DNA from: Thelocarpon superellum
Taxonomy: Eukaryota
Assembly: GCA_026025795.1 (NCBI GenBank)
Contig: JAPEUG010000008.1
Coordinates: 62,001 to 113,478, forward strand
Length of the DNA: 51,478 nucleotides
Direction of reading: 5' to 3'
Both the position numbers and the translations under genes were made by a program. How positions within the stretch are numbered: the first letter of the stretch is position 1; the number at the start of each line of letters is the position of its first letter. A model generated the notes under the pieces. The model did not search any database, had not been told where the DNA came from, and saw nothing but the letters and a program-made list of their open reading frames with translations. Shown in pieces: positions 14,217 to 49,756 of this stretch.

Positions 14217-16276
14217 ATGGCCGAAGAGCATCCAGCTCCTCGGTTCTGGGGAGAGGATCCACCTTTTGGTCTCCGGGCAAAGAATCCTCCTCGTGGTCTT
14301 TGGGACAAGACTTACCATCCTGAACCTATGTACGTTGCGGGCTTCTTCTGCGTAGACGGCGCAGAGAAACTGGGGGACCGTGAGTTTCTTGGTGCGCTCA
14401 GGGAATGCCCTGATTGCGATACTGGTCTCATTCGGTCAATGTTTGGGGCCGTGCAACATCTCAGGACGGAACATAGCTCGCTACACCCAATTCCACATGA
14501 CCGCTTGATACGACACTGGATGCAACAGGTGAAGTATGTCCCGAAAGACGGGTCGGATACCTTCATGTGGCCGGAAAACGCTGGCAGATCACCAAACACC
14601 GTGCAACCAATCCATTTGCCAGAGTACTCCTTGCGTCCTGATGGGGCGGTTCAGGGTCCAGCTGGTTTTCCCAAAACCCCCTTAAGCTATGATGAGCCGC
14701 TTCGGGATCCAGCTCACAGCGAGGGTGCTGTTACCGACCACGCACACTCCAGCGACCACTACGTCCGCCAAATCGATCTTCTCTTCGCCCATGGTCATCT
14801 CGTCTTCGCCCATGTCGATCAGGCGCCCTTCGAGTACCTCGGGGTGATCGGTGGAGGATCAAACAGCCACGTGGACAAGGTGCGGCTGAGGGGCGAGGTC
14901 GACGAATATGCCCGGAAGGTCATTGTCATGTCAGCGTTGACTCGACATCAATATCTACCCGAAGTCCAGAAGGAAGTGGAAAATGTCAAACGCTTGACGC
15001 ATCCTCACATCATCACCATCGTCGGCACCTACGAGGTTCCAAGGGCCTATGGCATCATTATGTCACCGCTTGCCGAAGGAGATCTTGAGCTGTTCCTGGA
15101 GCGCGTCGCTGAGCAAAACTTCCCCGAGGTGGAGAGGCAGAAGCTTGCTAGGTGGACTGGATGCCTCGCTCATGCGCTTGCCTACGTGCACGCCCACGAC
15201 ATGCGACACCAAGACATCAAGCCTACGAATATTGTGTTCAGAGGCGACGAGATCTATCTCACTGACTTTGGCTCTTCTCATCACTTCACCTCGGAGTCGA
15301 CGAGCTCGACTGAAGGCACAGCGTACGGCCATACTCGAATGTACAGCGCTCCCGAGGTCATCCATGGTGGTAGACGAGGTCGGTCGGCAGATGTCTTCTC
15401 CCTTGGCTGTGTGTTTGCGGAGATGACCACGACATATGGAGGCCGGTCAGTCGTGGACTTCTATCGATTCCGAGAGGTTGGCGGGTCGCACGCCTATTAC
15501 GCTACTCTCCATCTTGTCGACCAGTGGTTTGAGAACCAGCACAATTTCGCTCAGCAGATGCAAGCCATGATGCGTCATCCAGACCCACAACAAAGACCGT
15601 CGGCGGCTCAAATCTGGAGAACTATCAACGGTTCGGCGCCTTGCCGAGCATGCAATGGCGCGGGGCCAGTAAAGACGTTCGTGAAGAAAAGCTGGCAGCC
15701 GTGGGCGTCAGACTTTACGAGCGAATCTTTTTCTCCCCAACTACGAGAGACCAGCGATCCTTCCCGCCCGGAACCTTTGCTCTATCGAATTCGGTACGGC
15801 CTCGCTAGAAACAGTCCGTGGACGAAAGTTGACGAGAGAATAGGGCTCCTATCAGGGACAAGGCTTCTATGGTGAACCGGATCGCTCAAAAAGAGGTAAA
15901 TGGCGTCATTGGCTCTAATCCAGGTCCCTGGATCGAGCCGACAGACAGTTATCACCGAGGACAGCCGACGTTTAAGAATCCCTGGGTCGAGCCGACAGAG
16001 AATTATAACGGAGGGCAGCCGAGATTTAAAAATCCCTGGATCGAGCCGACAGACAATAATCACCATGGGCAGACGAGACTTATGGATCCCACAGACAGTG
16101 GATATGGAGGCCAGCCCACAAGGACGGGCCGGTCAGACAGTGGATACGGAGGCCAGCCCACGAGGACGGGCCGGTCAGACAGTGGATACGGAGGCCAGCC
16201 CACAAGGACGGGCCGGTCAGACAGTGAATACGGAAGTCACTTCCCGCATACGGATGACAGTGGATACGGAATTTAG
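14217..16276 (+). CDS. Fungal Ser/Thr protein kinase with N-terminal C2H2-like motif and repeat-containing C-terminal tail, 669 aa; exons 14217-15793, 15844-16276
   Basis: Kinase motifs IGGGSNSHV, ARK, HQDIKPTN, TDFG, YSAPE, ADVFSLG; CPDC-x13-HLRTEH. Intron 15794-15843 (gtacgg..gttgac..tag) fuses ORF 14163-15875 in frame to ORF 15869-16276. Start codon uncertain. Confidence 0.85.
15926..16075 (+). repeat. 54-nt (18-aa) coding tandem repeat, about 3 copies (PWxEPTxxxxxGQxxFKN)
   Basis: ccctgg..cgagccgacaga starts at 15926, 15980 and 16034. Confidence 0.9.
16092..16234 (+). repeat. 42-nt (14-aa) near-perfect coding tandem repeat, about 3.4 copies (DSGYGGQPTRTGRS)
   Basis: cagacagtg starts at 16092, 16134, 16176 and 16218. 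Confidence 0.95.
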
Positions 16277-20400: not shown

Positions 20401-22874
20401 AGATCCGTCTCGTCCTCGCCCATCTCGCGCACCCATTGCGTGATGGCGCTGAGCGCCCAGGGCTCGGCACATCGTCGGAAATCCGTCGTCGAGAGCTTGG
20501 CGGGATTGAACTTCTTGCGCTTGCCGGCCGGGAGCGCGGGCAAATCCAGCGTCGACATGGACTCGGACGAGGTGAGATCCAGCCCTTCCGTGCCAGGCAT
20601 GGCCGGGTAGATGCCGAGGGTCGGCTGCTTGAGGAGCTTCGCCCGACGCTCTTCGGCGTCGGTCTTGGAGCGGGCGGGCGTCATGGTTTGAGGCGTGCTG
20701 CTGTGGCTGGTCAAGGACGTTGAGCGCGGCACCGTGAGGCTGCTCAGGCCAAGGAACTTGTTCGTGTAGGCATCAGGCGCGGGGGGGTAGGCCGGGTGGG
20801 TCGGAGGATTGGAGGATTCCGTCGGATCGCGGTAGGTGCCGGTCGGCACCAGGTAGGGGATGTGATCATCCGAGGATGCTGGCACGGGGGGCAGCGGACG
20901 CTCCGAGCCTCCGTCCTGGCGCGGAAAGTAGAACATCTCGGGAATCTCCTCCTTGGCGGGACTCTCGCTCCCCGATCGTCGGCCCCACGTCGTTTCATCG
21001 CCTTCGTCGAAGCTCTGCTTGCGACCATAGGGACGTGGCTCGGCCAGGCCTCCGGTGCCGTAGGTGTCGACCCGGGCGGCCTGATTGAACGACCGAAAGG
21101 GATGGATGGCGTCTTGATCTGGGATGGAGTATTCATAGTCGACACCGCCCTGAGGGGACGGCTGGACTCCAGGATGGGGGAGAGGCCGCGCCGAGCCATG
21201 TCGAGAACGGTCGGGAGAGCCCTCATCGCCGTAGGACATGCGACCCTGATAGCCGCCACCATAGAGTCCCATGTCGACGTTGGCGTAGTCACTGTCACTG
21301 CTCTCTCCTTCCGGGTGCGACGGTTGGGGACGCCGCGCGCTGCCGTAGGCGCCATACATGGGTCCCCCACCGCCGCTCTGGCGTCGCGCGTCGTCGGCCG
21401 CTTCTTGCTCCTCGGCGACGCGCATGGCGGCGAGGCCCGCGGCCGCCTCCGGGTCGCTGTCGTCGCTGTAGCCCCCGGCGGAGTAGGATGCGGCAGCCGT
21501 GGTGGCGGCGCCGTTGTACGGGAGGCCGTTGGCCGTCGAGCCAGGGCTTGGGCCACGGCTGCTGGAGAAGAGCGGTTGGGGCTCATCGCTCTCGTCGGCG
21601 CGTGATTGGGGCCAGCCCGCGCTCTGCCGGGCGCGATGGGCCGACTGTGGCTGGGTGGGTCCGGTCATCACGGCGGCCTCAATCTCCCGCCAGATCTCCT
21701 CCTGGGCGATCTCCTCCGCGGTCCGGTCCTCGCCATGATCGCCATTCGGCAGCTCCGACTCGTCCTCGTCGTCGTCGAGCTCGTTTGGCGGACCGGGTAA
21801 GGGACGCGCGTGCGGATGTCGCCCCAGGGTATCCGTCCGATGCGGCAGATGTCGGGGCGGGCGGGGCGCGTTAGGTGACGGAGAGGGGGTCCCGGCCTGT
21901 TGGGGCGAGGCCGTGATGCTCTTCCGGCGGAGATTGGGGTCACTGAGATCCGATGGTCGCGGCAGCACTCGCGACGCGTACTGGCTTGGCGGGGCGGTGC
22001 CCGGGGGCACCGGCGGCGGTGGCGGCGCCGGCGGGGAGTAGGCCGAGGGCCGGTGGGGCAGCGGGGCCGATCCCGCCTGCGCCGGAAGGGGCGGCAGCGG
22101 AAGCGGGGGCGGTGCGGGTGAGACCGGCCCCGACGGTAGCCGCGGCGCCACGACGTATTGCGGCCGGATGTTGGCGGACGCGGCGGATGCGCCGTATTGG
22201 GTGGGAGAGGCAGCATAGGGCGAGGGGGAATACGGCTGGGCCACTGGGGCGGCGGAGGTCGGCGCGGCGCCCAGGACGGACGGATTGTATCCGTTTTGTG
22301 GGTATGGGAGACTGGACTGTCGGGGGGCGGATTGGGTCTGGGCCCGGTACAAGGCGGGGTTGTACGGCTGCGGGCCGGCGGGGGGGCGGGGCTCTGGCGC
22401 CGGAGGGTTACTGATGGGCATGGGGTAGGGGGTCTGCGTGGAGGCAAATTGCTGGGGGTTGTAGGTGAACTGCGTTTGCGTGGGCGACAGGGGCGACTGG
22501 TACTGATACTGGTATCCGGACATGGCGTGGCCGTGGGATGAAGCGCGACCATATTGCGGGGGGGGTGGATTCTGGTCCTGCAGGAACAGTTCCTCCTCTG
22601 GCCGGGACCCTAGACTGGCTCCTTGGCGGTAGGGGTCGGACAGGGCGGACTCGGGTCCCTCGGAGCCATAGCTCACGCCACCGTATACCCCTGGTCGTAG
22701 CAGGGCCGCGGCATCATCTCCGGTATCAAAACTCGAGGTCCGCCTCAAGGGCGGATCGGGGGCGGCGAGACGGTTGGGTGGTAGACTCAGCGGGTCTCGC
22801 CCTGGCCGCGGTGGAGGTGCAGGCGCGACAGACTGGTCGTAGGGCCGGGGGTAGTATTGCCCGTTGTGCGCCAT
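17464..22874 (-). CDS. RGF3: Rho guanine nucleotide exchange factor, Rgf3/Tus1 type (DH-PH-CNH), 1764 aa; exons 22874-18471, 18421-18158, 18090-17464
   Basis: DH domain (EIERQNILHEIVQTEDQY...YLKAPITRLQRYGLLL), PH domain (LFDHYLVLAK...NRQDWCDKI), CNH domain (VAVGTDYGVY, EFLLCYEECAVYVDKHG, FVEIRNA); introns 18470-18422 and 18157-18091. Paralog assignment (Rgf3 rather than Rom2) is by recall of the pre-DH region. Confidence 0.88.
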
Positions 22875-23896
22875 CGCGGCGGGCCGGTGGTCCAGCACGC
22901 GGAGATCTTGGGGCCGCGCTCACGACCCACGACGGACCGGGTCAGGCTGCGCTCCGAGAACAATTGAGACGGGCAAGCAGGGTGGTGGCATGTGCTCGAG
23001 CGCGATGTGGGCGCATTGAAGGCAGGCTCGAGATCGATGGTCATTCACGCTCCTCGATGATCCGAACCGGGCGGAATGCGTGTGGAGCGTGGCGGGAGGA
23101 CGAGCCCGCACGCACGCAGCGGATGGGGTCGGGTTCGGGTCGCAGCCGGAGGAGGAGGCGGACGGGCGGATGGGTGATCTCCGACAGCACCGTCGTCGCT
23201 GCTTTCCGGGCGATCATGAGCCTGAGGCGGGAGCGATAGGGCTGGCGATGCAATGATGGCCGTGGCCGTGGCTGTGGCTGTGGCCTAAGAGCTGGCCGTG
23301 GACGAGCGTCTTGCTTCCGACCTCTTACCCCTACACCTCTCAGCAGCTGCTACGGCCGACAAGGATAGGCCAGACGCGCGTGGTCATCAGGCGAAGCCTA
23401 GCTCTTGGCTGCTAGGCGACTGCTCGAAGTTCCAGCTCCAGCTCGCCGGGTCTAGGTTTGGGTACGAGGCTGTCTGTCCGCGACCAACAGGGATCTCGAG
23501 CATCTGTGCTTGGGCGGGTGCAGAGATAGCCTTTACCTCTGGCAATTTGTATTCCTTCTATAAGCCTACGGACTCCACTCGCCTCATCCATTCTCTACCT
23601 CTCCGCACGGCTTGTTCGTCCGTGTCCGAGGGACCGACAATCCAGCCTGTGCCATACGTGAATTTGCCGTGACATGACCAGCCATGTCTCGGCCGGTACT
23701 TGGTTGGGTGGGCAACTTCTTCAGTTGCCGAGAGCGCATGCACGGGATGGCCGCCCGGCAGGCGGCCCTTAGTACGCGGACGCGAGTTTACGGGCTGGTC
23801 TGATCGAGTCCGAGCCCTTTCTACGAGAACCTCCGCGAAGCCGCAGCTCAGGAGCGCGCTCGTAACGATTGTGCGCTCTACGGAGCGTCGTCAAAG

Positions 23897-25743: not shown

Positions 25744-28572
25744 ATGTCCATCCAGCAAGCCAAAGTCAAGAGCGCCAGCTCCGGCGACACCCTGGTGTTG
25801 GCCTCGGTCAACAACCCCGCGCAGGAGCGACAGCTGAGCTTGGCCTTTGTCACGGCACCGCGACTGAGGAAGGAGGGGGACGAGGTGGGTCATGGGCTGC
25901 GGCCTGCTCGCACCCTCCGCCGTTGCGGAACGTGCTGACCTAACGAAGAGCTAGCCCTACGCCTTTGAATCCCGCGACCACCTCCGACAGTTGGTCGTGG
26001 GGAAGGTCGTCCGCTTCCAAGTGCTCTACAAGATCTCCCTGCCCAACGGCAAGCCCATCGAGCTGGGTCGGGTGCTGCTGCCCGCCACCGGGCAATCCCT
26101 CCCTGAGCTCGCCGTGGCCGAGGGCTGGCTGAAGCTTCGCGATAACGCCGGACGCAACGGCGACACGGAGGAGGCCAGTGCCCTACTCGAGAAGCTCCGC
26201 CTGGCCGAGGCCAAGGCCAAAGAGGAGGGCAAAGGCGTCTGGGCGGCCAACCTCGTCGGCATCGAGACTGGGCAAGACCTGTTGGATCCCAAGAAGTTCT
26301 TGGACGAGTGGAAGGGGAAACCGATCAATGGTACGAGCCATGCGTCCACACACAGGGAGGTGGATAGCCCTGACCCATGACAGCGGTGGTGGAGAAAGTG
26401 TTGAGCGGCGACCGGGTCATCGTGCGCCTGTTACTGAGCCCCCGACAACACCAGCAGACGCTCCTCTTGCTGGCCGGCATCCGCGCGCCTCAGACCAAAC
26501 GCACCAATGCCTCGGACGGCAAGGAGCAGCCCGGGCAGGCCGGGGCGGAGAAGTCGCAGCAGTTTGTGGAAGAGCGGATCCTGCAGCGGAACGTGCAGGT
26601 CACCCTGGTCGGGCTGTCGACGCATGGCCAGCTGATCGGCACGGTGCGACATCCGAACGGGAGCATCGCCGAATTCTTACTCCAGGCCGGGCTCGCATGG
26701 TGCAACGACTTCCACACCACGCTCCTCGGCAACGAGATGCTCCCCTTGCGGCAGGCGGAAGAGGCGGCCAAGCAGAAGAAGCTCGAGCTCTTCAAGGACC
26801 ATGTCACCAGCCGAGGGAAGGCGGCCAGCGATGCCGATGCCGTCGTGGCTCGTGTCCAGAGCGCCGACACCATCTACCTACGAAACAAATCGGGCGGAGA
26901 GCGGCGGGTGAACCTTAGCAGCGTGCGACAACCAAAGTAGGTTCTGCATCCCTCACGCACAATCCGAGACGCTGACCACGGCAGGCCGTCGGATCCCAAA
27001 CAGTCTCCCTTCGTGCAAGAGGCCAAGGACTTCTTGCGCAAGAAGCTGATTGGCAAGTCGGTGCGCGTCTCCATCAACGGCAAGCGGCCCGCACAGGATG
27101 GATTCGATGAGCGTGAGATGGCCACGGTCACGCACAACGACAAGAACGTGGCGCTGCTGCTGGTCGAGCACGGCTGGGTGTCGGTGATCCGACATCGTCG
27201 CGACGACGACGATCGATCACCCATCTACGATGAACTGCTCCTGGCAGAACAGGAAGCGCAGAAGGAGCAAAAGGGCATGTGGGCTGCCAAACCGCCGGCG
27301 GTCAAGACCTACGCCGATGTGTCGGAGAGCGTGCAGAAGGCCAAGATCCAATTGTCGGTGCTCCAACGGCAGAAACGGGTACCGGCCGTGGTCGATTTCG
27401 TCAAGTCGGGATCACGCTTCACCCTGCTCATTCCGAAAGAGGGGGCCAAACTCACCTTTCTCTTGTCCGGCATCCGCGCTCCCAAATCCTCCCGAGGACC
27501 CACTGACGTCGCCGAGCCCTTCGGGCAAGAGGCGCACGACTTTGCCGTCAAGCGCTGCCTGCAACGCGACGTGGAGGTGGACGTCGAGAACATTGACAAG
27601 TTTGGCGGATTCATCGGCACCCTCTACATCAATCGGGAGAGCTTTGCCAGGCTGCTGGTTGAGGAGGGCCTGGCTAGCGTGCACGTCTACTCGGCCGAGC
27701 AGTCCGGCAACGCGCGGGAACTGCTGGCGGCGGAGCAGAAAGCCAAGGAGGCGCGCAAGCACCTCTGGCACGACTGGGACCCCAGCAAGGACGTGCCGGA
27801 AGCGGAGGGCGACCCCACCCCGGCGAATGGCACGAACGGCGAGGCGGCCGCGCCCGCGCGGAAGAAAGACTACCGCGACGTCGTCGTCTCGCACATTGAC
27901 GAGACTTGCCGGCTCAAGCTCCAGCAAGTGGGGACGGGCAGCGCGGCGCTGACGGAGATGATGAACGCCTTCAAGACCTTCCACGTCAGCAAAGACAACG
28001 ACAAGCCGCTCCCGGGGCCCCCCAAGGCCGGCGACATGGTGGCGGCGCGCTTCTCGGCCGACGGCGAGTGGTACCGCGGCAAGATCCGGCACAATGATCG
28101 CGAGAAGAAGGAGGCCGAGATCCTGTACGTTGACTACGGCAACTCGGAGAAGCGGCCGTGGTCGGCGCTCCGCCCGCTCTCGCAGCCGCAATTCTCCACG
28201 CAGACGCTCAAGGCCCAGGCCGTCGACGCCGTGCTCTCCTTCCTCCACTTTCCCACGCAGATGGACTACCTCGCCGACGCCGTGCACTTCGTCGGCCAGA
28301 CGACGGCCGACAAGCAGCTCGTGGCCAACGTGGACAACACCGCGCCCGACGGTCTCTTGCACGTCACCCTGTTTGATCCCAAGGTCTCGGGCAGTCTACA
28401 GGAGAGCGTCAACGCCGACATTGTCGGCGAGGGTCTCGCCATGGTCCCGCGCAAGCTGAAGGCGTGGGAGCGCTCGGCGACGGACGTGTTGAAGGCCCTG
28501 ACGGCCAAGGAGGAGGTGGCCAAGAAGGAGCGCAAGGGCATGTGGGAATACGGCGATCTGACCGAGGATTAG
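25744..28572 (+). CDS. SND1: Tudor staphylococcal nuclease (Tudor-SN/p100), 885 aa; exons 25744-25884, 25955-26330, 26384-26936, 26985-28572
   Basis: Repeated SN domains (VKSASSGDTL, VEKVLSGDR, VARVQSADT, VDFVKSGSRF), Tudor domain (AARFSADGEWYRG..YVDYGNSE) and the C-terminal GMWEYGDLTED; three canonical introns. Confidence 0.96.
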
Positions 28573-28960
28573 CGCTGTCTCTCACTGGTAGGATGGCCAC
28601 TCGTAGGAGGTTCGTTGTAGCCGCCGGCACGCGATGGATAGGATGGATACGTGCCGGATACGCGATGAAGAGGCTCGTTAGGCCGCATGGCTAGGGATGC
28701 ATTCTAGGCGCATCCATGAGACTTCGCCGACTCCACCTCGGGAGCATAGCACCGATCAGCATGCCATGCCGCGGGTTGGAGAGGCACTCGAATGTTCCGA
28801 GGCCGTCATTCATCAATCCTGGTTCAAGATCTTCACGGGGTCATGTGACGTTCTCGCTCTCCATCGAAGGAGCCTGATGCCGTTGACTTTCCCTTATATT
28901 CACAAGACCCTGGCTCGTAGGTACGAGATAAGTGTGGGTCACCATCTGCAGCTGCTCAAT

Positions 28961-30367
28961 ATGCAGGGACCAGGTATCGTACAGGACTTGGACGTCGATC
29001 TGGACGTCCTCGGGCAACAGCCGTTGCTCAAGATATATACTCAGATCTGCCTTTGCTATCCTGTGCCCCAGGTTTCCTCTCATTCCGCAATCATCCACAC
29101 GTTGACGAGTGGTCTCGACCGGCTGTCTGCCAGCTTTCCATGGCTCGCGGGCCAAGTCGTCATCGAAGGTGCAGGTGAAGGCAATACAGGAGTCTTCAAG
29201 ATCCAAGCACTGGCGAACAATCCCCGCTTGGTCGTGAAAGACCTCAGACGTGACCCCTCCATCCCCACCATGGATGCTCTCAGACGAGCCCAGTTCCCCA
29301 TGAGCAGGCTGGACGAGAGCATCATCGCACCTCGCAGAACTCTCCCAGGAAGCTCTGACGAATCCACGTCAGACTCAACCCCAGTTTTTCTCCTCCAAGC
29401 AACGTTCATCACCGGCGGCCTTTTGCTCACCTTCGTCGGCCAGCACAACACCATGGACATGACTGGTCAGGGCCAGATGATCCATCTTTACTCCAAAGCT
29501 TGCCGTGATGAAGCATTTACCCGCGAAGAAGTCTCTTCCAGCAGCCTTGACCGCCGCAACCTCATCCCCTTCCTCGACGACTCCTACAAACAAGGCCCCG
29601 AGCTCACCCCTCAGATTGTCAAAGCCAGTCCCTCTCATCCCCTCTCCCGCAGCACCAAAGAACGCTCAAATCCTCCTTCCCCTCCACAATGCGCCTGGAC
29701 CTCTTTCACCTTCAGCTCTACCTCGCTCACCGCTCTCAAATCACTCGCCACGGAAAGCATGACCGTCTCTTCAGGCTACGTCTCCACCGACGACGCCCTC
29801 AGCGCCTTTATCTGGCAATCCGTCATCCGCATCCGTCTCCCGCGCTTGAATGCCACGGCGGAGTCGACATTTGCCCGCGCTGTCGACGTACGGCGTCATC
29901 TGGATATTTCACCAACGTACCCAGGGCTTGTGCAAAACATGACATATCATACGTATCCATGTCAGAAGCTGGTCAAGGAGCCATTGGGCAGAGTGGCATC
30001 ACAGCTTCGTTCGGCAGTCGACCCCAAGACATCGGATCTAGGCTACCACACGCGTGCCCTTGCAACCTTCCTCGGTCGCACGCCCGACAAGAACGTCGTC
30101 TCCTTCACAGCGACGCTGGACCTATCGGCGGACCTCGTGTTGAGTTCGTGGGCGAAGTTGGACTGTTATGGACTTGATTTCGCCCTTGGACTGGGCAACC
30201 CTGAGGCGGTACGCAGGCCACAATTTGACCCCGTCGAGAGCTTGATCTATTTGATGCCGCGAAGGCTGGACGGCGAGATCGCGGTGGCGATCTGTTTGAG
30301 GGATGAAGATATGGAGAGGCTGAGGGCCGATGAAGAGTTTGCGAAGTATGGGAGGTATGTTGGGTGA
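28961..30367 (+). CDS. TRI101: Trichothecene 3-O-acetyltransferase-like (Tri101/Ayt1, BAHD-type acyltransferase), about 468 aa, single exon
   Basis: LDVLGQQPLLKIYTQICLCY N-terminus, catalytic QHNTMDMTG (HxxxD), STDDALSAFIW, RAVDVR, SSWAK, DFALGLG.PEAVRRP. ATG 28961 preferred over 28697 because family similarity starts there. Symbol indicates family, not proven substrate. Confidence 0.88.
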   Translation: MQGPGIVQDLDVDLDVLGQQPLLKIYTQICLCYPVPQVSSHSAIIHTLTSGLDRLSASFPWLAGQVVIEGAGEGNTGVFKIQALANNPRLVVKDLRRDPSIPTMDALRRAQFPMSRLDESIIAPRRTLPGSSDESTSDSTPVFLLQATFITGGLLLTFVGQHNTMDMTGQGQMIHLYSKACRDEAFTREEVSSSSLDRRNLIPFLDDSYKQGPELTPQIVKASPSHPLSRSTKERSNPPSPPQCAWTSFTFSSTSLTALKSLATESMTVSSGYVSTDDALSAFIWQSVIRIRLPRLNATAESTFARAVDVRRHLDISPTYPGLVQNMTYHTYPCQKLVKEPLGRVASQLRSAVDPKTSDLGYHTRALATFLGRTPDKNVVSFTATLDLSADLVLSSWAKLDCYGLDFALGLGNPEAVRRPQFDPVESLIYLMPRRLDGEIAVAICLRDEDMERLRADEEFAKYGRYVG

Positions 30368-33769: not shown

Positions 33770-35433
33770 ATGTATCTGGATCACCCCAGGACCCAGCCAA
33801 AGACTTTCTTGGCCCACTGCGTCCATGCCTGGCATGCGAATGAGCGCCATCATCTCTATACATTGCCGCAAGGCTCGCTCATACAGCAGCGCTTTGTCCA
33901 ACAGGCCGCCGTCCTAGCTAGGATCTTCCTCACCTTGCTTCTCTCCAGCCTGCACCGAGCCTCACATGTCGACCACCCTCGACATTTCACTGGACTGGGC
34001 AGTGTCGCCGTGGCCCGGCCACCAAAGGACGCTTGTCGGTTGAATTCGTCCACGCTGCACCAATATGGGCTCTCGCACACGGTGCAATACGCGCGACGGC
34101 ATATCACCACACCAGTGACAGACAGCTATGAGTCTCCGAACCTGGTCGATGTCGACGAGGCCCTCGTCCCGCTTCTCCAGCGGGTAAGTGTCATCGACAG
34201 GCCGACCGATGCGAGCACAGCGTAAATGGTGGGTGCCACGGCGGAGATGATGATCTTGGGCTTCTGCCACGCGCAGCCACTCGCCCTTCCCCTCCCCATC
34301 CCCCCACCGACGCATCCCGAGGCCGATCTTTCCATGCTGCTCGGGGTCACGACAGCGGCGGAGCGCCTGCACGACTCGATATCCCATATTCAGCTGTCGA
34401 TGCAGCAGGGCACGAGGATTCATCTTCTGGTCGTGCTGGTCGACGAGGCACCGGTCGAGGTCCTTCAGGAGGAACTGCAAGCCGCGGGGATCAACGCCAC
34501 CGTCCAGCTCACGGACCGGACGTGGAGGGAAGCGTGGTTTGAGATGGTGCCCCTAGTACATGAAGAGGTGGAGAAACGGCGTTCGTCGGACTCTCCTGTG
34601 CAATGGGTGGGCCTGATCGACGATGACACCTTCTTCCCCTCCATGACGAACCTCATGAACATGCTTCGGAAATACGACTTCACGAGACCGCACTACGTTG
34701 GCTCGCTGATCGGGGACTGGGAAGTAGTGGCGGCTAACGGCATGCTCGCGTCGGGGGGTGCCGGGGTCGTTCTCTCCATACCTCTACTGGACGAGCTCAC
34801 GGAGGCGTTCCCTATCTGCCGCGACAGTTTGCAGGCGATACCCGAAGGAGACCAACGCCTTCGGCGGTGCATTCTTGACAACACCCAGACGAGCTTGTCG
34901 CCGGAAAAGGAGCTCCCTCAACCCGAGACGATTGCCGATGCGCGCGGCGTCTTCGAGTCGGGCCGACCCATGCTATCCATCCACCACTGGAAGTCAACCT
35001 TCACACTGGACGTGGTGAAGCTGTACGCCGCCGCGGTCGGTGCGGGCCCGACTGTATTCTCCAGCGCTGGAAATTCTTCGCCGTCAACCAAACGCGAAAT
35101 CAACCCCCGGTCGTCCTGACCAACGGCTACTCCATCGTGGAATACCACGTGCCAGAGCTGCCCAATTTCGACAAGACGGAGATGACATGGGTGGGCAGCG
35201 GCAAAGATCGCTCGCTCACGGACGACGCCAACTTCCGCTACGGCCACAGTCTCGCGTCGATGCGTCCCCCGCTGAAAGAAGGCGCGGAAAAGCGGTCCGA
35301 TCTTCTCGCGGACACCGTCACCGAGCCTGACGGTCACATCCGCCAGGTGTATATCCGGAGGGGCTCAGACAGCAACGAGAACGGCACTGACGAGGATGCC
35401 GTGATTGAGCCGATCTGGCTCAACGAAGCATGA
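33770..35433 (+). pseudogene. Glycosyltransferase family 31 (Fringe-like) gene with in-frame stop and frameshift
   Basis: WVGLIDDDTFFPS, ASGGAGVVLS, GDQRLRRCI, FESGRPMLSIHHWKS. TAA at 34223-34225 splits two same-frame ORFs; a frameshift near 35040 is needed to reach CGPDCILQRWKF...LTNGYSIVEY. 5' end approximate. Confidence 0.75.
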
Positions 35434-35571
35434 GAGCGTGGGGAGTCCGCCCTCGATTGATCTCTAGGATGTGATGTGAAAGACCGCTCGTAGACGGGTT
35501 ACACACCCCGAGCATCCGGCACATTTGTGTCCCTCGTTGATACAGACGTTTGTTGAACTGACAAACTCACA

Positions 35572-35820
35572 AGAGCGTCTTTGGGGAGCTCTTGTATGCA
35601 TATGCAGCGATGTCAACATGTCGGAACAGAGGTGTAAGAGGGTTCCCTGATACATCTGTACCCATGTCGCCGCGTAGGGAGATAGGCGCGTGAGGCGCTC
35701 CGTACGCATATGCATCAATGTCGACACGCGGAATAGAGACCTTGGGGGGGGTCCCGTACGCATATACGTCTACGACGAGATATGCGAATAGAGGCGTGGG
35801 GGGTGTCTCTGTATGTCATT
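35572..35820. repeat. Degenerate ~54-nt tandem repeat, about 4.5 copies
   Basis: Recurring agag..gggg..(c/t)gta(c/t)gcatat..atgtc..gaa; gcatat at about 35598, 35706 and 35760 (multiples of 54). Confidence 0.6.
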
Positions 35821-35973
35821 TGTCGTCTTGCGCTCCTGTCCAGTCTATCTATCCCAACCTCCTATTCCGTCTACTCCTACCGCTCCAGTAACTCCAGTCC
35901 GTCTTTATGATTCATTCCGTCCGTCCTCTGTCCGTCGTCCGCCGTCCGCCATGGATTGTCCGTCGCGGATCGT

Positions 35974-36010
35974 CCGTCACCTGCCGTCACCTGCCGTCAC
36001 CTGCCGTCAT
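35974..36010. repeat. 10-nt tandem repeat (ccgtcacctg) about 3.7 copies
   Basis: Seen directly. Confidence 0.85.
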
Positions 36011-36190
36011 TTGGCGCCTTGTCGTGCATCCTAGCTCATCGGCCACAAGGGTGGGCACGGATACGGGCGGGTCGGAGGGGGGAGACGACGTGGGGTCTGT
36101 GGGCCGTAAGAAGAGGAGGGGGGGGGGGGGGGCACAAACGGGGGTGGGGGGTGGAGTCGCGACGATCGGCACGCCGACGGAGGTCTAACA

Positions 36191-39100
36191 CTAGTCACCA
36201 CTGTACTGGTAACTAGGCACGGTCGGTAGTTCGCCCTTCCAGACGTCTTCACCGGGGATCAAATCCGGGATGACGTATCGGCAGGTAAGGGCGAACCGAA
36301 GCATGTCACTGGACGCCACCGAGTGCTGAATCACCAAGAGTCAGCTCGGGTCCAATGCAGACGTAGATCATGAATGATGAAAGTGAAGAAAGGAAATGAC
36401 ACACCTCATAGTGCTTCTGTATGCCCCGACCGTGCATCACCACCATATCCCCGTGCATCAGTTGCATCTTGAGTGCAACGGGTGCAGTGGCCGATCGCTT
36501 GACTTTGGCGCGAAAGTCCTGGAACTTCCGGCCAAAGTCAAGGTCGCTAAGCTGCAGCTTTGCACGCTGCAACTCCACCCGTTCCTCGATGCCGCGGCAG
36601 CCGGGGATGATGGTGGGATCGTAGACCCCCGCCGATGTCACGCCATGGTACGGCGTCCCCTTCATTCGAAGGGTCATGACGGCGGCGCCGCCGAGGGAGA
36701 GGGTCCCAATAGTGGGACCCAGCGTTGTCTCGCCGTCGTCGTGGTACTGTGAGACACGGTGGATTAGCCGCGAAAATGACATGTGAGAGACGTTAGCGCC
36801 GTCACGACGTTCGGTCGTCTGGTCGCTCCACCTCGGAAGATGAGGCCGGTAAGATCTCACGAGAGAAAGGGGAGAGGGGCTTACCCCGATCGCCTGCGAC
36901 TCCACGTACCCCAGGGCGAGGAGTTCGTTAAAGGGGACGAACCCCTCACCCTCAACGCTTGACGCGCCGGCCCAGCTGAGCCGCTGAACGGCCTCGAGAA
37001 GCGGGACCGGCGCGTCGACGAACGGCCGGGATGCCACGGCCACATTATAATCGTATGGCATCCCCTGCCCGCAGGGGATTAGCACATACGTGAGATATAG
37101 GTGTATATAAAGGTGGTAAAGATGATGCCGGAGGATGAGGTTGTGGCGGTGGTGGATGAGAAAGGTTTGCGGGTGGGGAGAAAAGAAGAGAAGAAGAAGA
37201 AGTGAAAGTGGGCGACTCACGAAATTTATGCCAAACTGCGCTGTGTAGAAGGTACCGGAAACTGTGCACAATTTATCTATCAGCAGGGCCCCAGTCGCGT
37301 GACAAACAATAATGCAAGTGAACGGCATGGTGAACGACAGGGCCGGGGGTGAATGACAGGGGTCGGGTGTGAACGACGATGGCAAAGATGAACACAGGGG
37401 CGAGGGAGAATAACAACAGCAGGGACAAAAATCAACAGGGGCATTGAAGCACGACGATGACAGTAATAATCAGCCGAGGCGGGGAAGAATGACAACGACG
37501 GAAGTACTTGGCTGGGGCAGGGAAGAAAGATGACACCAGAGATAAAGGACAGGGGCGAGGAAGAACGACGATGACGGAGATAAGCGGCTGGGCCGGGGGG
37601 GTATAACGATAGCGGCGACAAACAACAGGGGCCGGAAATAACGACGACGCCGGAGATAATCAGCCGGGGCGGGGAAGAACGACGATGCTGAGGTAAGTGA
37701 CCAGGGTAGGGGAAAAAGAGAATGACGAAATGAGCGTCAGGAGCCGAGGAGAATGATGATAGTGGAGACAGACATCAGGGGCTGGGATAAATGACAACGG
37801 TGGACATGAACAGCCAGGGGTGGGATAAACGACCATAGCAGGTGTGAACGATAGTGGCCGGGTGTGAGCGACCATAGTGGACGTGAACGTCAGGGCCCGG
37901 GCGCAAACAACAACAGCAGGGGTAAAGAGCTGGGGCTGGGCGGAACATCACATCATCGCGCTGCGCAGAAGAGTTGCGCGGAGACAGTGATGTGCGCAGA
38001 CATTACAACGTGTGACTTACCGGTGCTATTCTTGAGCGGCGATCGTTGCAACCCGAACTCGATCTCTTGTAGTTCCTTGAACATGGAGTCTGGGCCTCGA
38101 GGTCGCTTGTTGATGGTGTCATTGGCCATGAAGTGCGTGATCGTCCCACACTCTGGAATGGTGTAGGTGATGATGCGGTAGTTGGCAGTGAACCGCGTGG
38201 TCTCTTGGATTGGCGACATGAACTCGTTCCGTGGGATAGCGTGTCCTTGGTACGGTACGAGATTGGGATCGAGAACGGCGCGTGGGCTGAGGGTGACATG
38301 TGGCAGCGGATGGAAGAAGTCACATCCCTCGTTGTGACATCTCCATCCGCTCCAGAGATCACGCGAATTGCATCGGTTGCATAGCGGACAGACCATGCCC
38401 TTGCGCGCAAGGCGAGCAACGGAAGACTTGGGATTGTCCGGGTCAGGCGTGAAGAGCGTGGGCTTCAATGAATAGGGCATGTTGATGGCCGTGTCCCATT
38501 CGATCCGCTCCCGCAAGAAGGCTTCATTGTACGTAAGTTGCGCCGGGGCCGACTCACCACCAGTCGTCCAGAAGGTCTCGCATCGGCTGTTGAGACAGAT
38601 CCAGGTCTCGACGTAGACATGCGGGTGCTCTTCCTTGCAGATGATGCAGCTGGCGCGCGGGGCTTTGCAGCCATAGTCGGAATGGTCGATGCGAGGCACG
38701 AAGCCAACGGGCGCCCACCAGCTGACCGACGACAGGTCCACCTTCTGATAGCGCACCTGGAACGTGGTCTTGTTGTTGAACTTCTCTCCCCAGATGTGTG
38801 TCACATGGAACCATGCCATGACGTTGAAGCGGTGCGGTGGCTGGCTGGGACAGTGCTGGTTACCTTTGCCTGCACGACGAGTAATTAGCTGGTGTCACGG
38901 TACGGCATTGGGTCACCTCCTACCAACAAGGGCCACGATGGGGATGCGTGAGGTCAGATTCCGCTTCAGGGCCGTCACCAGGGCTCCGCTATCGGTCTGG
39001 TCAATGACTTGTTCCATGGCGCCGGTCACCGATCGTTGACGGCCTCCTCCACTGTCCCGGGTCAGCGAAGATGCGTGTCGGTACAGGTGTACGCACACGC

Positions 39101-39771
39101 GCGAGATGATGATCTCGTCATCCATGAAGTCACGGTCGCCTCCGAACTTGTCAAAGAGGATGCCATAGCAGATGCCGCCCGTCATGTAAACCGCGCTCTG
39201 ATATGCACGGTAATAAGGCAAGGTCTCGCAGAGTTCTTGTCGATTCTATCGCCCATGGTTAGCAGGTGATACTGCACGAACCCTGTCACGACTCATCACG
39301 AAGACTCACGTCGGCCCACACTGGAGGCTGTGCCAGGCATAGCTGCCTCGGATCCATGACAGGCTCGATAGGTGCGGGTCGATGGGCGAGTCTCTTCGGC
39401 TTTTGGCCCACTTTGATAGCGGTGCTGGCCGAGGACTTGCGTTTCTTGGCTGACTGGTCCGGCTCTGGGACTGGAGAGCTTTCGGGAACCGTCGGACGCG
39501 GGGCCACGGGATAGTACTCCGTAGGGTCGAGGGTCGAGATGGTGCCAAGGGTGGAAGAATCCGAGTCATCCTCCGAGAGGACTCGCTTCGATAGCCCCGA
39601 CGATGTCAGGGGGCTTGCGTCGGTCATACCGACGTTGCCAGTGATGGGCTCAGAGGCCTCATTGGCATTGCTGCCGGGGGTGAAAAAGGTTCGCTGAGTT
39701 CGGACACGGCTGGAGCGTCGGACCAATTCATTGAGGGGGACGCCGCTATCTTTGGAGAATTCTTCGGCCAT
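36191..39771 (-). CDS. AlkB-family 2OG-Fe(II) dioxygenase with probable SAD/SRA-like and Cys-rich N-terminal domains, 761 aa; exons 39771-39310, 39245-39097, 39051-38924, 38869-38021, 37261-37221, 37064-36885, 36746-36405, 36325-36191
   Basis: Spliced product has PPVWADNRQELCETLPYYRAYQS, IISRVGGG, FNVMAWFHVTHIWGE, Cys clusters (CIIC..WICLNSRC; CPLC..WRC..C), FNELLALGY, YHDDGE (HxD), HGDMVVMHG..QKHYEHSV (distal His) and RFALTCR (2OG-binding Arg). Seven GT-AG introns; exon total 2286 nt. Confidence 0.88.
37339..37955. repeat. Degenerate ~38-nt minisatellite (about 16 copies) inside the 759-nt intron of the AlkB gene
   Basis: Plus-strand unit roughly aggggcnrggrwgaaygacrayrrcggagatraacrnc; G-rich starts near 37396, 37437, 37476, 37514, 37551, 37589, 37626, 37665, 37702, 37738, 37776, 37816, 37853, 37891, 37931. 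Confidence 0.75.
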
Positions 39772-42123
39772 CTTGGATGAGGAGCGGCGGGATCCGTTAA
39801 GTACTAAGGCGTTCTTATTGGTCAGAGGAGGACTTCCGATATCTAGTAGGTAGAGGATTGTCAGTATGGTACGAAGGGAAAGATCTAGAAGATCAAGCGG
39901 CGTGATGGAGGTAAGTGCGCAGAGTGAGTTGCGCGAAAGGTCATGTGCGGAGGACTTGCGCAGGAAGAAATGTGATGAAGCGCTCCTTGGCACGTGAAAT
40001 CGTAAGAATGCACGCAGGGGATAGAAAGACGTCTTCGACCGGCCCCAGTCGCGTCACAAGGAAAGGGCGGAAGGGGCATTGGTGAAAGTGGGGGAGGACG
40101 TGAAAGTGACGTGAACACAGCACACTTTTGTTGATTAGCTGGGGAAGAGGGAAGATGGAGGAAAGGGGGAGAGGAAAGTGCTTAGACAGACAAGACAAGA
40201 CAAGAGGTTTAAATAGACAAGAAGAAGACGTCGGAGAAGTCTCGTGAAGGTGGAGATCGGAGGGATTTGGAGAAACATCGCGGGGCAGCTCGCAGAACGT
40301 GGGAAATATCAAAGAGGAAGCGGTGGGAACGATGGGGTTTAGTGAAGAGGAACGTGGGGAAGGAGAATGGATGTGAGGTAATGAAAGGAGAGGAAGAGAG
40401 GAAGACTTACCTGGGAGGTTGGTGTGGTTGACGAGAGGGAGAGAGAAGAAGACGACTTACCTGGGAGAGTGGAAATTGATGTAAGTGTCGGGAAAAAGAG
40501 ATGAAGGGAGAGAGAACGGAAGGCTTACGTGGGAGGGTCGAAGTTGATGTGGTTGTGGAAGAGAAGAGAGGAAGAGAAGTCGGCTTGTGTGTGAAATTTG
40601 AAGTCGGCGATGGGAATGGTGACAAGAGAGGTGACGGGAATGGTGGAAGGACTTCTCTCAACTTAAACCCTAAAGGATTGTAAGAAGGGAGATTGTGCGG
40701 GGAGGGTAAATTTCGTGTGTCCGTGTGTGCGGCTCCGCTCGTGACGCGTCCTGTCAATAGGACAGGTGAAGGGTGTTCTCGACCGGGCTTTTGCGCAGTA
40801 GCGTAGACCTCACTTGGCACACCCACCTGGTCATGACAATCCGCCCCCCCGTCGTGGATGGCCGTAAGGGCTTGGGTCGAGCGAATGGATGCTTCGCTCT
40901 GGGCCTCCACAAGTCCTGGTGTGAGAAGGCTGCGGGGGAAAGAAAGAAGGTGAGAGGACGACGCAGCTCTTGTAGTGCGAGGAAGAGGGTGGTTGGAAGT
41001 CGTAGAACACGTAAAACACTTAGAAAGTCGAGGCGGGTGGGGATATGGGAGGTGACGCAGAGACTGGAAATGATCAGGCCCGGTGAAGCCCTGATGCACT
41101 TGACGCCTTTTCATTCCTCCCCGTGGGGGACATGTCACGACTCCAGAAGGAGCATTGGCAGACGGGAGAACTGAATCCGCATTGCGAAGTCCGGGCGGGA
41201 CATGCTCGAGGAAGCGTCTAGAGTTATTGACCACCGTCAGGGGCGAGGGCAGCTGAATCACGTCCGGGCGGGAATCACAGAGAAATGGTATCTTCACGCG
41301 TTCGAGTCCATGCGATTGAGGCTGACACCACGCAAAGCGTGCTGTATCTTGAGAAGCATCATTGCCAACCGGACCAGTCGCACCCGTTTTATCCGCGTGT
41401 CTCCACCGTTCACGGTCGCACGCTTCTCCGCCCCTCGAGCACCGGCAACGAGCTGCCGTTGGAGGCCCTCCTGATGGCTCACCTCGTCAATGGCGGCGTG
41501 GGTCCATTCCGAACTCATTCCCTCTCTCATTAGCATCTTTGGCTGCATCACCTCCGTCACCATGACAGCTCTGCGCGGGAGCAGCTGCTCGCCGTGGCGT
41601 CTATTCGGCTCCCGCTGTCGGAGGGGCACACGCGAGGTCGATCAAGGTTCATCCCGAGTTGATCGTCCGCGTCTTCACAATGTCCGCCGAGGATCTGCTC
41701 GGTCGAGAACAGGCATGATTAAGGCAGATGATGGGGACAGGATCAATCAGCATAAGCATCCTTTCAAATGCCTCCGGTCCGACCGTGTTCGGGCGGAAAC
41801 GTGGAGCTTCTCTATCCATCGATCGGCCTCAGGACACAGATGGAAAGCGAACGATCTCACCCGGCGAGATTGAGCGTCACAGTATCGCTTTTCCCAATAT
41901 GGGACGAGGTACGTGCGAGGGTCACAATAGGCATTGTATTGTTGGGCGCTGACCAGCTAAGGCCAAATGAAACCCCCTGTCTGCGATGTGACCCCCTGCA
42001 CAAGGTTTCGGCTGTTTGCCGCGGATATCGCGACGGAACACTGAAGCTCTTCCCTGGCCTCGGCGGATGCGCTGACGCCAGCAAGCTTTCATCTCCAGCT
42101 GAGACAGACCTGACGAGGTCAGG

Positions 42124-47098: not shown

Positions 47099-47632
47099 GC
47101 CGAGAGTGGCCAAGAGGAGCGCGCGTAAGAGGTCGGTGTCGGCGGTCGTAGCGGGAGCGGTGGCCGTTGCTCGTGCGCCGGGCAGCGACGGCACTTTACC
47201 GCTTAGTTACCAGACTTCCGCAAAAGAGGAGCGGAAAGCAACCCACCGCGCCATTCTGCCCACGCTCCACCCTGCACCTCGTCGGCCACTCCTCCCACCA
47301 CCGGCCTCATTGTCCATTTCGCCGTTGACCATGCTCCCATTGCTACCATTCCCACCCTCGTTATCCCTCTACCACCCTCGGGCCCAATTTTCGCTGCCCC
47401 GCCCGCTACCGCCCCGCCTCTGACCCGTCATCCTCGCGCGCGGTGCGGGCTCGTCGTTCCTCTTGGCGTCGGCGCGAGCACCGCAGCTGCCGGAGCTCCC
47501 GCCGTCCCTCACCGTCCATCGCCCGCGCCCACCAGCTTCCGCCGAGCGGTCGAGCACCCGGCCCGTTGGGTCCAGGCCGGATTCATCCGCAAACTGCCTC
47601 CCTCACCCCCCGCCCGCGCCCTCCCTTCCGCC

Positions 47633-49756
47633 ATGTCGCCCCGGCGTTCGTCACGCGCGCGGACGACCCAACCACCTACCGGGTCGGAGCACACCCTCTC
47701 GTCCGCCTCGTCCACGACCTCGAGTCGCGCCGAGCGACCGGCTCGTTCGGTCCACAAGACCAGCTCGCCCGCCAAGTCCGTCGCCTCACGCTCGCCCTCG
47801 TCCGAGGCAGGCGAGGAGGCGCGACGACCCGCGCACAGCGAACCACCGCAGACGCGACGCCGCAAACGCGACGTGGGCGAGGGCGAGGGCGAGGGCGACG
47901 ACGTCCCGGGTCGCCACGCCTCCGCACCCAGGCTCGAGGGCGAGGGAGAAGACGAGGCGGATGAAGAAGAGGAAGAGGTGACGCGCTGCGTGTGCGGGCA
48001 GCTCGACTATCCGGGCCCGCCCGCCTTGGCCACGATCGAGCCCAAGCCCCTCCCCAAAGACGACGCGGACCCCGACACGTCCGCGGCGTCGATCGATCCC
48101 CTGCCGGAAGATGCGGGTGGCCTCTTCATCCAGTGCGACATCTGCAAGGTCTGGCAGCACGGTGGCTGCGTGGGCATCATGGATCAGGCCATGACTCCCG
48201 ACGAATACTTCTGCGAGCTCTGTCGGAAAGACCTACACCGCGTCAGCGTGGGACCCACCGGGTGAGTCGGCCATGCTGGAGCTTCGTGAGCGGGCTCGCT
48301 GATTGATTTTCACTCAGGCAACGGTCGTCGCGCTACCTGCCCGTGCTCGAGTCCGGTTCTGCCCGGGTCTCGCGAGCCAGCTCTCAGTCGAAAGAGGGCG
48401 AGGTCAAGACGCGGAAAGGCAAATCAATTCGTCCGCCCCCGCGGTCCGACGGCGGCAAGCGTCGCTCGACCATGAACAGCCGAGACGCGGCGTACGACGA
48501 GGAAGAACAGCTCCGACGAGCCATTGAGGAGAGCAAGGTCGAGAAGGCACTGGCCCGAGAGGAGGGGAGCATTCGCAAGGGCAAGCGCAGTCGCGGTGAC
48601 AGCGAAGAGTACGCCCCGACCAAGGGATTGTGGTGGATGAGTGACTGACGAGCGGGGCAATAGGACACGGCAGGGCTCGACGAAACGTCAACGGACTGGC
48701 TCCAGCACGCCCTCATCACCGTTGCACGCCAACGGGCGCTCGCACTCACCCGCGCTCGAGGCCGAGGAAGACGACTCGATGACGAAAATCTCCTCCCAGA
48801 ACGGACCGAGGAAGATCCGCGGCGCTGCAGCGCGCAACCACCGTGAGAAGGAACTCCGGGAGCGCGAGAAGGAACGCGAGCGGGCCGACGCTGCGGGCCG
48901 ACGGAAAGGCCGGGCGGAGCGGCGACGGGGCGACGGTAGGTTGAACGATGGCAGCGGTGAGGCTCGACTGACGATCCCAGACTCGGACCCGTCGGACGAG
49001 TACCCGCCCTCGCGGCCAGCATCGACGAAAGACGGCGTGGACAGGAACTCGCACCCCCCGGAGCTCCCATCGTCCTCTCAACCTCCGCCGGAAACGCCAC
49101 CGTCACACGTCGCGCCCGTCAACCACACGAGCAGCCATACGCCGACCCACCGAAAGACGGGCCGACCACCAGCGCGTCGTGGGCGGGTCGGGCGCAACCA
49201 ATACACCCGGGATCGAGACATGCGCAACGAGCCCCACGGCGAGCGGGACGGGTCTCGAGAACGGGAGGGGTCTCGCGACGGCCGACGAGAAGGGGCCAAC
49301 GGCACCAACGGGCACACGTCGCATCACCACGGCGCGAATGGCGGCGAGGCCAGCAAGCCCAGCAAGCCGAAATACCTGCATCCGCAACGCACGAGCATAA
49401 ACGAGATGAAGCGGCGCGTGGCCGCCATCCTCGAGTTCATCTCGCGCACGCAGGTCGAGATGGCGGGCGAACAGACGCCTCCGTCGGGTAGCAGCGAGAC
49501 GGCCACGGCGACGCTCCTCCGCGGACTCGCCAGCGAGCTCCCTGCCATCACGGGGAACGGGCGTGGAGGCAGCGGGACCAAAGGCTCTAATGCTACCCAC
49601 AGTAACGGTACTGGGAACGGTCATGGTGGAGGCGACGGCGTGCAGGCCCTCGACGAACGCGACTTTACGCAGCTGTCGAGCCTGGAGATGATGGACGTGT
49701 TGACGCGGAAACTGGTGCTGTGGCAGAAGGAGTTTGGGAAGTACGGCGAGAAGTAG
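47633..49756 (+). CDS. CTI6: PHD-finger Rpd3L histone deacetylase complex subunit Cti6, 655 aa; exons 47633-48261, 48318-48608, 48664-48935, 48981-49756
   Basis: PHD finger TRCVCG...FIQCDICKVWQHGGCVGI...YFCELC; RRSTMNSRDAAYDEEEQLRRAIEESK; EMKRRVAAILEFISRTQ; MMDVLTRKLVLWQKEFG; three canonical introns. Confidence 0.92.

Follow-up and report, generated by a model that had tools for sequence, protein, structure and literature searches.

Fusions of AlkBH3-type dioxygenase domains to SAD/SRA domains have been stated to exist by Iyer, Zhang and Aravind (Bioessays 2016, PMC4738411), so that the statement in the initial annotation of the locus described here that fungal SAD/SRA-AlkB fusions had been predicted computationally has a source there. 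The two enzymes of this class closest to our protein, human ALKBH2 and ALKBH3, repair 1-methyladenine (1mA) and 3-methylcytosine (3mC) in DNA and RNA. According to a review of eukaryotic methylation (PMC9246332), the latter is an off-target product of DNA methyltransferases (DNMTs) repaired by ALKB2 and ALKB3, and the evolution of ALKB2 is coupled to that of DNMT1 and DNMT3, though less tightly in fungi; Dmt1, from Mucor, and CcTet are named as the first characterised fungal demethylases in the available text of a 2026 review (PMC13297926). On the reader side, the SRA domains of SUVH5, KRYPTONITE and UHRF1 are joined to SET or RING domains, and the bacterial proteins TagI, MspJI, AspBHI, LpnPI, SauUSI and ScoMcrA carry an SRA-like base-flipping reader and a nuclease on one chain, the nuclease destroying the modified DNA. 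The canonical 5-methylcytosine (5mC) pocket, as in UHRF1 and SUVH5, consists of two stacking Tyr residues and an Asp. Filamentous ascomycetes are not known to have a TET enzyme, and no DNA demethylase that couples a reader to an oxidase is known in this fungal group.

We have studied a stretch of 51,478 nucleotides (nt) from Thelocarpon superellum (assembly GCA_026025795.1, contig JAPEUG010000008.1, positions 62,001 to 113,478), hereafter the window, to which all coordinates refer. At 36191..39771 its minus strand carries a gene for a protein with, almost certainly, a four-part architecture: a disordered tail, a divergent SRA domain, two paralogous Zn ribbons and an ALKBH3/ALKBH2-like domain. 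Its kingdom, its architecture and its pairing of an N-terminal divergent SRA domain with an AlkBH3-type domain are those of the fungal fusions of Iyer and colleagues, from which, as far as the available text of PMC4738411 goes, it does not differ in kind. By contrast with SUVH5, KRYPTONITE and UHRF1, the SRA domain is here joined to an oxidase which, unlike the nucleases of TagI and its analogues, would restore the base. The protein is therefore a new member of a computationally known and biochemically untouched family, to which the present work adds a checked gene model, a corrected intron, the pair of Zn ribbons (perhaps already drawn in PMC4738411), a two-helix insert in the jelly-roll, and conservation counts with a map of the putative base pocket.

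Domain architecture and family

The divergent SAD/SRA domain comprises residues 140-318 (38700..39354), its coding region being split by the introns 39309-39246, 39096-39052 and 38923-38870. Residue numbers follow the public protein record (P0001, 776 amino acids, aa); in the 761-aa form that we favour they are lower by 15 beyond residue 204. Homology was detected at the profile level: a profile of 26 sequences of the domain, searched against the PDB, retrieved the SRA domains of SUVH5 (expectation value, E, 1.6e-6), SUVH4 (3.7e-5) and SUVH6 (3.2e-3); the only further matches at E<=10 were SUVH9, at 0.19, and a pair of unrelated chains, at 0.77 and 1.6. Searched singly against the PDB with phmmer, the protein gave one insignificant match (E 0.89) and no AlkB entry. 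Among 52 relatives scanned with Pfam, hand-picked from the top-ranked listed matches (P0003-P0060), 16 have sub-threshold SAD_SRA matches at the homologous place (E 1.4e-5 to 8.9e-3, 16.2-25.3 bits for a cut-off of 30.7) and 36 match PF13532; one relative, P0202, bears a precomputed PF02182 label.

The predicted fold agrees with this assignment. The AlphaFold2 (AF2) model of the domain is confident (predicted local distance difference test, pLDDT, 88.7; predicted template-modelling score, pTM, 0.83), and its Foldseek search gave 57 matches at E<=0.001, with SUVH5, TagI, KRYPTONITE, UHRF1/Np95, UHRF2, SUVH6 and SUVH9 among those listed; every listed match is an SRA entry or a complex which we take to contain UHRF1. 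VIA-align, a method independent of Foldseek, run against 48,161 representative chains, ranked TagI first (Z 14.6), followed by SUVH5 and UHRF1 (both 14.0), KRYPTONITE (13.8), Np95 (13.6), SUVH6 (12.1) and SUVH9 (10.6). They were followed, at Z 8.8-5.2, by the SRA-like readers that bacteria have in their modification-dependent nucleases; the top 14 entries are all of SRA type, and the first unrelated fold also scores 5.2. Whether sought by features or by structure, the neighbours of the domain in the ESM Atlas are SAD_SRA clusters throughout. Together, the profile homology and the Foldseek, VIA-align and Atlas matches support the inference, made initially from the letters of the sequence, that the N-terminal region is SRA-like, and the comparison with SRA and PUA folds suggested at that time did find similarity, with SRA-type domains as the top structural matches. 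With the SRA domains of SUVH5, KRYPTONITE and UHRF1 the Thelocarpon domain shares the fold (Z 14.0-13.6, root-mean-square deviation 2.2-3.7 A over 132-152 residues) and core motifs including the Gly-rich loop and a Gln aligned with that of the thumb; it differs from them in a set of invariant residues of its own family (R192, R203, W312/W313) and in the lack of conservation at the aromatic pocket position.

The C-terminal part, residues about 480-776 (36194..38216, exons 4-8), is an ALKBH3/ALKBH2-like Fe(II)/2-oxoglutarate dioxygenase. It matches PF13532 (2OG-FeII_Oxy_2) at residues 559-737 above the curated cut-off (E 2.3e-14, 54.5 bits against 31.2), and profile and structure searches place ALKBH3 and ALKBH2 nearest, in accordance with the AlkB assignment made at the outset. 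A full-length profile of 23 family members, searched against the PDB, matched at E<=0.01 only four versions of human ALKBH3 (7.6e-9 to 4.6e-7) and the SUVH5 SRA domain (8.5e-6). The full-length AF2 model has a mean pLDDT of 82.3 and a pTM of 0.79, falling below 50 only at residues 1-131 and 209-216; its 262 Foldseek matches at E<=0.001 (top E 1e-8 to 1e-6) are led by ALKBH2 (3h8r_A, E 9.6e-9, template-modelling score, TM, 0.70 on the target) and ALKBH3 (8jnk_G, TM 0.75), followed by ALKBH6 and Escherichia coli AlkB at about TM 0.5. Judged from these matches, the domain is predicted to adopt the double-stranded beta-helix fold with the AlkB-type nucleotide-recognition lid, the lid being assigned at the level of the fold and not residue by residue. 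Identity to ALKBH3 and ALKBH2, the best profile match and the two best structural matches, is 15-18%, and the Thelocarpon protein differs from them by about 480 additional N-terminal residues and by a helical insert of ~50 residues inside the jelly-roll (about 655-705, with helices at 671-683 and 686-699), which most aligned relatives have and some lack.

All residues required for catalysis are in place. The HxD motif (36735..36743) supplies H620 and D622 as metal ligands; these two residues, as well as G623 and E624 (the latter at 36731-36729), are invariant in 54 aligned relatives, and the third metal ligand, H733, together with the 2-oxoglutarate-binding R742 and R748 of the RxxxxxR motif (36278..36325), is conserved in at least 90% of the 54 sequences. 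H620/D622/E624, H733 and R742/R748 fall on the H-x-D-x-E motif, the second His and the Arg pair of ALKBH3, so that the catalytic set claimed in the initial annotation is indeed complete.

Between the two domains lie the two Cys clusters noted there, both present in the protein and kept in its relatives: a first Zn ribbon, C336-x2-C339-x13-C353-x4-C358 (38580..38648), in which C339 is invariant and C336, C353 and C358 are each conserved in at least 90% of 54 sequences, and a second one, C422-x2-C425-(C428)-x13-C439-x4-C444 (38322..38390), whose five Cys are each conserved to the same degree. The spacing is identical in both, a Trp stands two residues ahead of the third Cys in each, C428 is peculiar to the second ribbon, and the profiles of the two cross-match in a few relatives; from their sequences, they look like a duplicated, paralogous Zn ribbon. 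Neither the Pfam scans nor the Atlas feature search assigned this region to a named family, and the Atlas structure search gave only under-threshold resemblances, Zn_ribbon_Top1 among them; when Pfam was run on each exon frame by itself, its only matches were the AlkB domain and zf-CCCH_10, the latter insignificant (E 0.097). A likeness of the region to GRF-type fingers is an impression that none of our analyses supports. The remaining part of the protein is an N-terminal tail of low complexity (residues 1-131, 39379..39771), predicted to be disordered (pLDDT below 50 in the full-length model) and unalignable among relatives.

This combination is characteristic of a whole family, which brings together a base-flipping type of reader and an oxidative demethylase, the two activities that demethylation or targeted repair needs. 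Residues 132-328, searched with phmmer against 1.84 billion representatives, retrieved 710 relatives at E<=1e-3, 312 of them at E<=1e-10. Family-specific profiles found the SRA-like and AlkB parts together in 135 of the 150 representatives listed, a test that is circular for the 23 from which the profiles were built; the 15 without an AlkB part are records of 124-484 aa or records ending soon after the SRA-like/Zn-ribbon part. These counts suggest a near-obligate fusion. In the named collection, a profile search gave 165 matches at E<=1e-10 among 8000 scored candidates, and all organism names among the 120 listed are fungal, Talaromyces species among them; their genera belong to five classes of filamentous ascomycetes. 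The family is thus widespread, and its named members come from ascomycetes that form lichens, associate with plants or live in soil; they are deposited as 'hypothetical protein', 'alkylated DNA repair dioxygenase AlkB' or 'AlkB-like domain-containing'. Seven distinct related loci (L016, L017, L018, L020, L021, L026 and L034), 30-37% identical to the query, lie on contigs with one metagenome prefix, and there may be several paralogues of the family per genome or several carriers in that metagenome sample. One protein with a published expression pattern may also belong here: 'ALKBH2' of Fusarium graminearum (FGRRES_09872) is 933 aa long, groups with human ALKBH3 and is reported to rise sharply in expression at ascospore formation (PMC10826363). 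Its length suggests extra domains, making it a candidate member in a tractable species. CpALKBH of Cryphonectria (PMC11708048), a small protein whose jelly-roll spans residues 222-345, has a different architecture and was set aside.

Putative base pocket and candidate substrates

We consider it probable that this is an intact filamentous-ascomycete gene whose four-part product acts as a nucleic-acid dioxygenase in the following manner. The SRA-like domain and the Zn ribbons would hold DNA and extrude or recognise a base, and the AlkB domain would hydroxylate an N-linked methyl group on the flipped base using Fe(II), 2-oxoglutarate and O2, the methyl departing as formaldehyde and the base being restored. 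N-demethylation directed at DNA is likewise the function that we would expect, with reasonable but not high confidence. The likeliest substrates would be DNA lesions of the 3mC/1mA type, as for ALKBH2 and ALKBH3, with N6-methyladenine (6mA in DNA, m6A in RNA) as the main alternative. We favour 3mC/1mA because the repair clade provides the nearest matches of the catalytic domain, in which the acidic residue following HxD is also retained; as the specific substrate they are nonetheless a tentative choice, which we hold to be somewhat improbable taken alone. Such lesions might be by-products of cytosine methyltransferases in methylated DNA, the reader steering repair to the DNA that these enzymes target. 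If the substrate is 3mC, the protein would physically connect DNA methylation with the repair of the incidental damage that it causes, a connection for which the evidence so far is co-evolution only (PMC9246332); were it 6mA or 5mC, the family would represent a new class of erasers.

Whether the reader could see 5mC depends on its pocket, which we mapped with the HMMER alignment to SUVH5 and with residue counts in 145 family domains. The key SUVH5 residues are the thumb Gln392 and the pocket residues Tyr416, Asp418, Tyr428 and Thr429. The position aligned with the thumb Gln is Gln in 117 of the 145 domains, and 123 have an acidic residue (Asp or Glu) aligned with the pocket Asp. Near-invariant residues specific to the family are R192 (135/145), R203 (110/145) and G221 (145/145), besides W152, R156 and W312. 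The second Tyr, Tyr428, falls in a gap of the alignment and has no aligned counterpart. These counts agree with the remark, in the available part of PMC4738411, that this version of the SRA domain has 'distinct features', could recognise m6A and may not read 5mC.

Several observations weigh against the mechanism that we prefer. Pfam SAD_SRA (PF02182) has no match in the Thelocarpon protein or in the relative P0002 even at E<=10. The position aligned with Tyr416 is variable, its five commonest residues being non-aromatic (P25, C25, E22, D14, G10, i.e., 96/145), which argues against plain 5mC reading; on the evidence of these alignments, 5mC may lie altogether outside what the SRA-like domain reads, and repair guided by 5mC becomes a weaker idea. 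Around the 'ISR-GGG' loop the three alignments made with HMMER differ by 1-2 residues, so that the pocket mapping is provisional. The listed sequencing runs containing this DNA (five DNA runs from two studies, one of them probably its source) include no RNA. In the full-text literature on SRA-AlkB proteins we found no assay of any family member, and that on fungal SRA-AlkB fusions gave no experimental work, as the initial annotation, which knew of no biochemical characterisation of the subfamily, had anticipated. Finally, Iyer and colleagues favoured m6A over lesion repair (PMC4738411, in the text available).

The last point leads to the view that the protein is an epigenetic eraser and not a repair enzyme, its divergent SRA domain reading 6mA in DNA (or m6A in RNA) and its AlkB domain removing it. 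Recognition and demethylation of m6A were proposed for these AlkB-like proteins in PMC4738411 (available part), the aromatic residue of the 5mC cage is not conserved whereas the family-specific R192 and R203 are conserved near the pocket loops, and fusions of a reader with an enzyme are typical of chromatin regulators. The catalytic domain, however, is nearest in sequence and structure to the ALKBH3/ALKBH2 repair clade and not to ALKBH5, FTO or ALKBH4/NMAD-1, and the characterised fungal 6mA erasers, the NMAD-1-like Dmt1 of Mucor and CcTet, have other architectures (PMC13297926, as far as its text was available). We regard a 6mA eraser as unlikely, yet as the most serious of the competing explanations.

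The oxidation of 5mC itself is far less plausible. On this hypothesis, the SRA domain would flip 5mC and the AlkB domain would oxidise it, as a substitute for TET in fungi that lack it. The fold is that of the SRA domains that flip 5mC, the cytosine-reading Asp of the pocket has the acidic counterpart described above, and AlkB, ALKBH2 and ALKBH3 are reported to oxidise 5mC weakly in vitro. Against this, oxidation of a C5-methyl group lies outside the normal chemistry of the AlkB clade, a single base cannot occupy the SRA pocket and the AlkB active site simultaneously, and the stacking Tyr position is not conserved. 

A further proposal is a one-chain DNA reader-eraser in which the SRA-like module flips out and reads, in duplex DNA, 5mC of regions targeted by methyltransferases or else 6mA, and the rigidly attached ALKBH3-like domain demethylates the same or a neighbouring site. 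It is a speculative proposal with perhaps a minor chance of being right; if true, the protein would be either a dedicated cleaner of methyltransferase-derived 3mC or the missing active DNA demethylase of filamentous ascomycetes.

The SRA-like domain might also have ceased to read bases and serve as a mere structural or general nucleic-acid scaffold for an enzyme acting, like ALKBH3, on single-stranded DNA, RNA or tRNA. Judged from the scores of the full-length model (pTM 0.79 despite 131 disordered residues), the folded modules, all three of them, are predicted to form a single rigid unit, as would suit a scaffold; ALKBH3, which prefers single-stranded substrates, is the best sequence match, and the missing Pfam match and the unconserved cage residues point in the same direction. 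Nevertheless, conservation within the family is highest in the SRA-like domain, its surface loops contain the near-invariant W152, R156, Q170, R192, G220/G221 and W312, which argue for a specific ligand, and the thumb-aligned Gln is largely retained. We therefore find a purely structural role improbable, if less so than the oxidation of 5mC, and prefer an N-demethylase of DNA guided by its SRA-like domain.

Gene model and the in-frame 45-nt intron

The gene was recovered by using its largest exon as query in a word-indexed search (574 candidates), which yielded two proteins: P0001, 100% identical and the model of a lichen-fungus MAG, named in NCBI 'MAG: hypothetical protein M1838_005918 [Thelocarpon superellum]', and P0002, a 1372-aa relative from Piccolia ochrophora, 38% identical. 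Mapped onto the window, P0001 occupies seven exons and has the same letters as our 761-aa product except for 15 residues derived from an unspliced 45-nt intron. The splice check that followed gave eight exons, at 39771-39310, 39245-39097, 39051-38924, 38869-38021, 37261-37221, 37064-36885, 36746-36405 and 36325-36191. Their scripted joining confirms the eight-exon chain originally noted, since it produces 2286 nt and 761 aa with a single terminal stop (TAG, 36193-36191), and the gene is, as also noted, invisible as one open reading frame, the stop-to-stop frames here being of 255, 110, 313, 387 and 49 aa. Splicing was deduced from homology and splice signals: the seven introns, of 64, 45, 54, 759, 156, 138 and 79 nt in order, all start with GT and end with AG, and in every one a CTRAY motif precedes the acceptor by 10-18 nt. 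The annotated start is the first in-frame ATG of its open frame.

The intron that the public model translates (39052..39096, GTGCGT...CTGAC at -10...CAG) adds 15 residues to the 'ISR|GGG' loop of the SRA domain. Only P0001 has them: the remaining 25 sequences in the 26-sequence domain alignment have no residues at this place. They form the sole low-confidence stretch within the folded part, with pLDDT below 50 at residues 209-216 of the full-length model and 77-87 of that of the domain. Genomic loci provide further evidence. An 8-sequence alignment found 63 related loci on metagenome contigs, over which the family domain profile was run in the three forward frames; several are near-duplicates from parallel assemblies (e.g. 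L001-L007 and L057-L060), so that they do not amount to 63 independent genes. The profile match continues across the intron position without insertion in 33 of them and breaks at exactly that site (profile positions 63-66, equivalent to R203|G220 of P0001) in 19, leaving gaps of 46-62 nt. The frame changes across the gap in 14 of the 19, so that the gap must be spliced out there. Among the other 11 loci, seven end their match at 64-65, two break nearby and two are fragments without the site. A second break in related loci, at profile positions 107-108, corresponds to the next intron of the window, and a search with exon 4 alone (38025-38867) found no related loci. Together, the domain alignment, the comparison of loci and the model confidence support the eight-exon, 761-aa form over the public 776-aa one.

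In the relative P0034, too, extra residues are inserted at this place (alignment A2, columns about 415-430), which suggests that read-through of the short SRA-loop intron recurs in the annotation of this family. The public model and at least P0034 thus read through a conserved short intron in what is predicted to be the loop of the base pocket, and alignments or models built on such records carry a false insertion.

Two other features of the gene deserve mention. The 41-nt mini-exon at 37221..37261 (residues 545-558), flanked by AG and GT and placed between the 759-nt and 156-nt introns, encodes a segment that aligns with a conserved one in all 22 aligned relatives. The fourth intron (37262..38020, GT...AG, CTRAY at -18) is 759 nt long, whereas the remaining six range from 45 to 156 nt, and contains, at 37433-37687, a degenerate 38/76-nt tandem repeat detected by Tandem Repeats Finder and by a repeat-family search. 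This long, repeat-bearing intron and the lack of RNA among the listed runs could be signs of a decaying or untranscribed copy without function. Such an explanation is most improbable: the frame is open across eight exons with canonical splice signals, the catalytic and Zn-binding residues are all intact, from residue 140 onwards the model is confident everywhere except in the loop with the retained intron, and the neighbours are ordinary genes of single-copy type. The intron repeat is purine-rich on the plus strand (GC skew 0.34 and AT skew 0.40 over 37001-38000). No inverted repeat of at least 25 nt occurs in the long intron, and 35500-40500 has no Rfam match above thresholds.

Surroundings of the gene

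The neighbouring frames encode ordinary eukaryotic domains: SNase and Tudor domains as in Tudor-SN (26941-28572), a trichothecene 3-O-acetyltransferase-like domain (28682-30367), a Fringe-like/DUF604 domain (34226-35119), a PHD finger (47207-48265), a RhoGEF with an RGF3 winged helix and a PH domain (18456-22919) and a protein kinase (14031-15875). There is no methyltransferase among these frames, and the neighbours give no hint of function. Upstream of the gene, the stretch 40383-40586 overlaps a 359-aa open frame of the minus strand (40407-41486) without Pfam match; it is very purine-rich (GC skew 0.44 over 40001-41000) and holds three spaced copies of a 26-nt unit with CTTACCTGGGAG. Just past the 3' end of the gene, at 35916-36160, simple repeats accumulate, comprising (TCCG)n, 3.6 copies of CCGTCACCTG, a G15 homopolymer and two copies of GGGGGTG.

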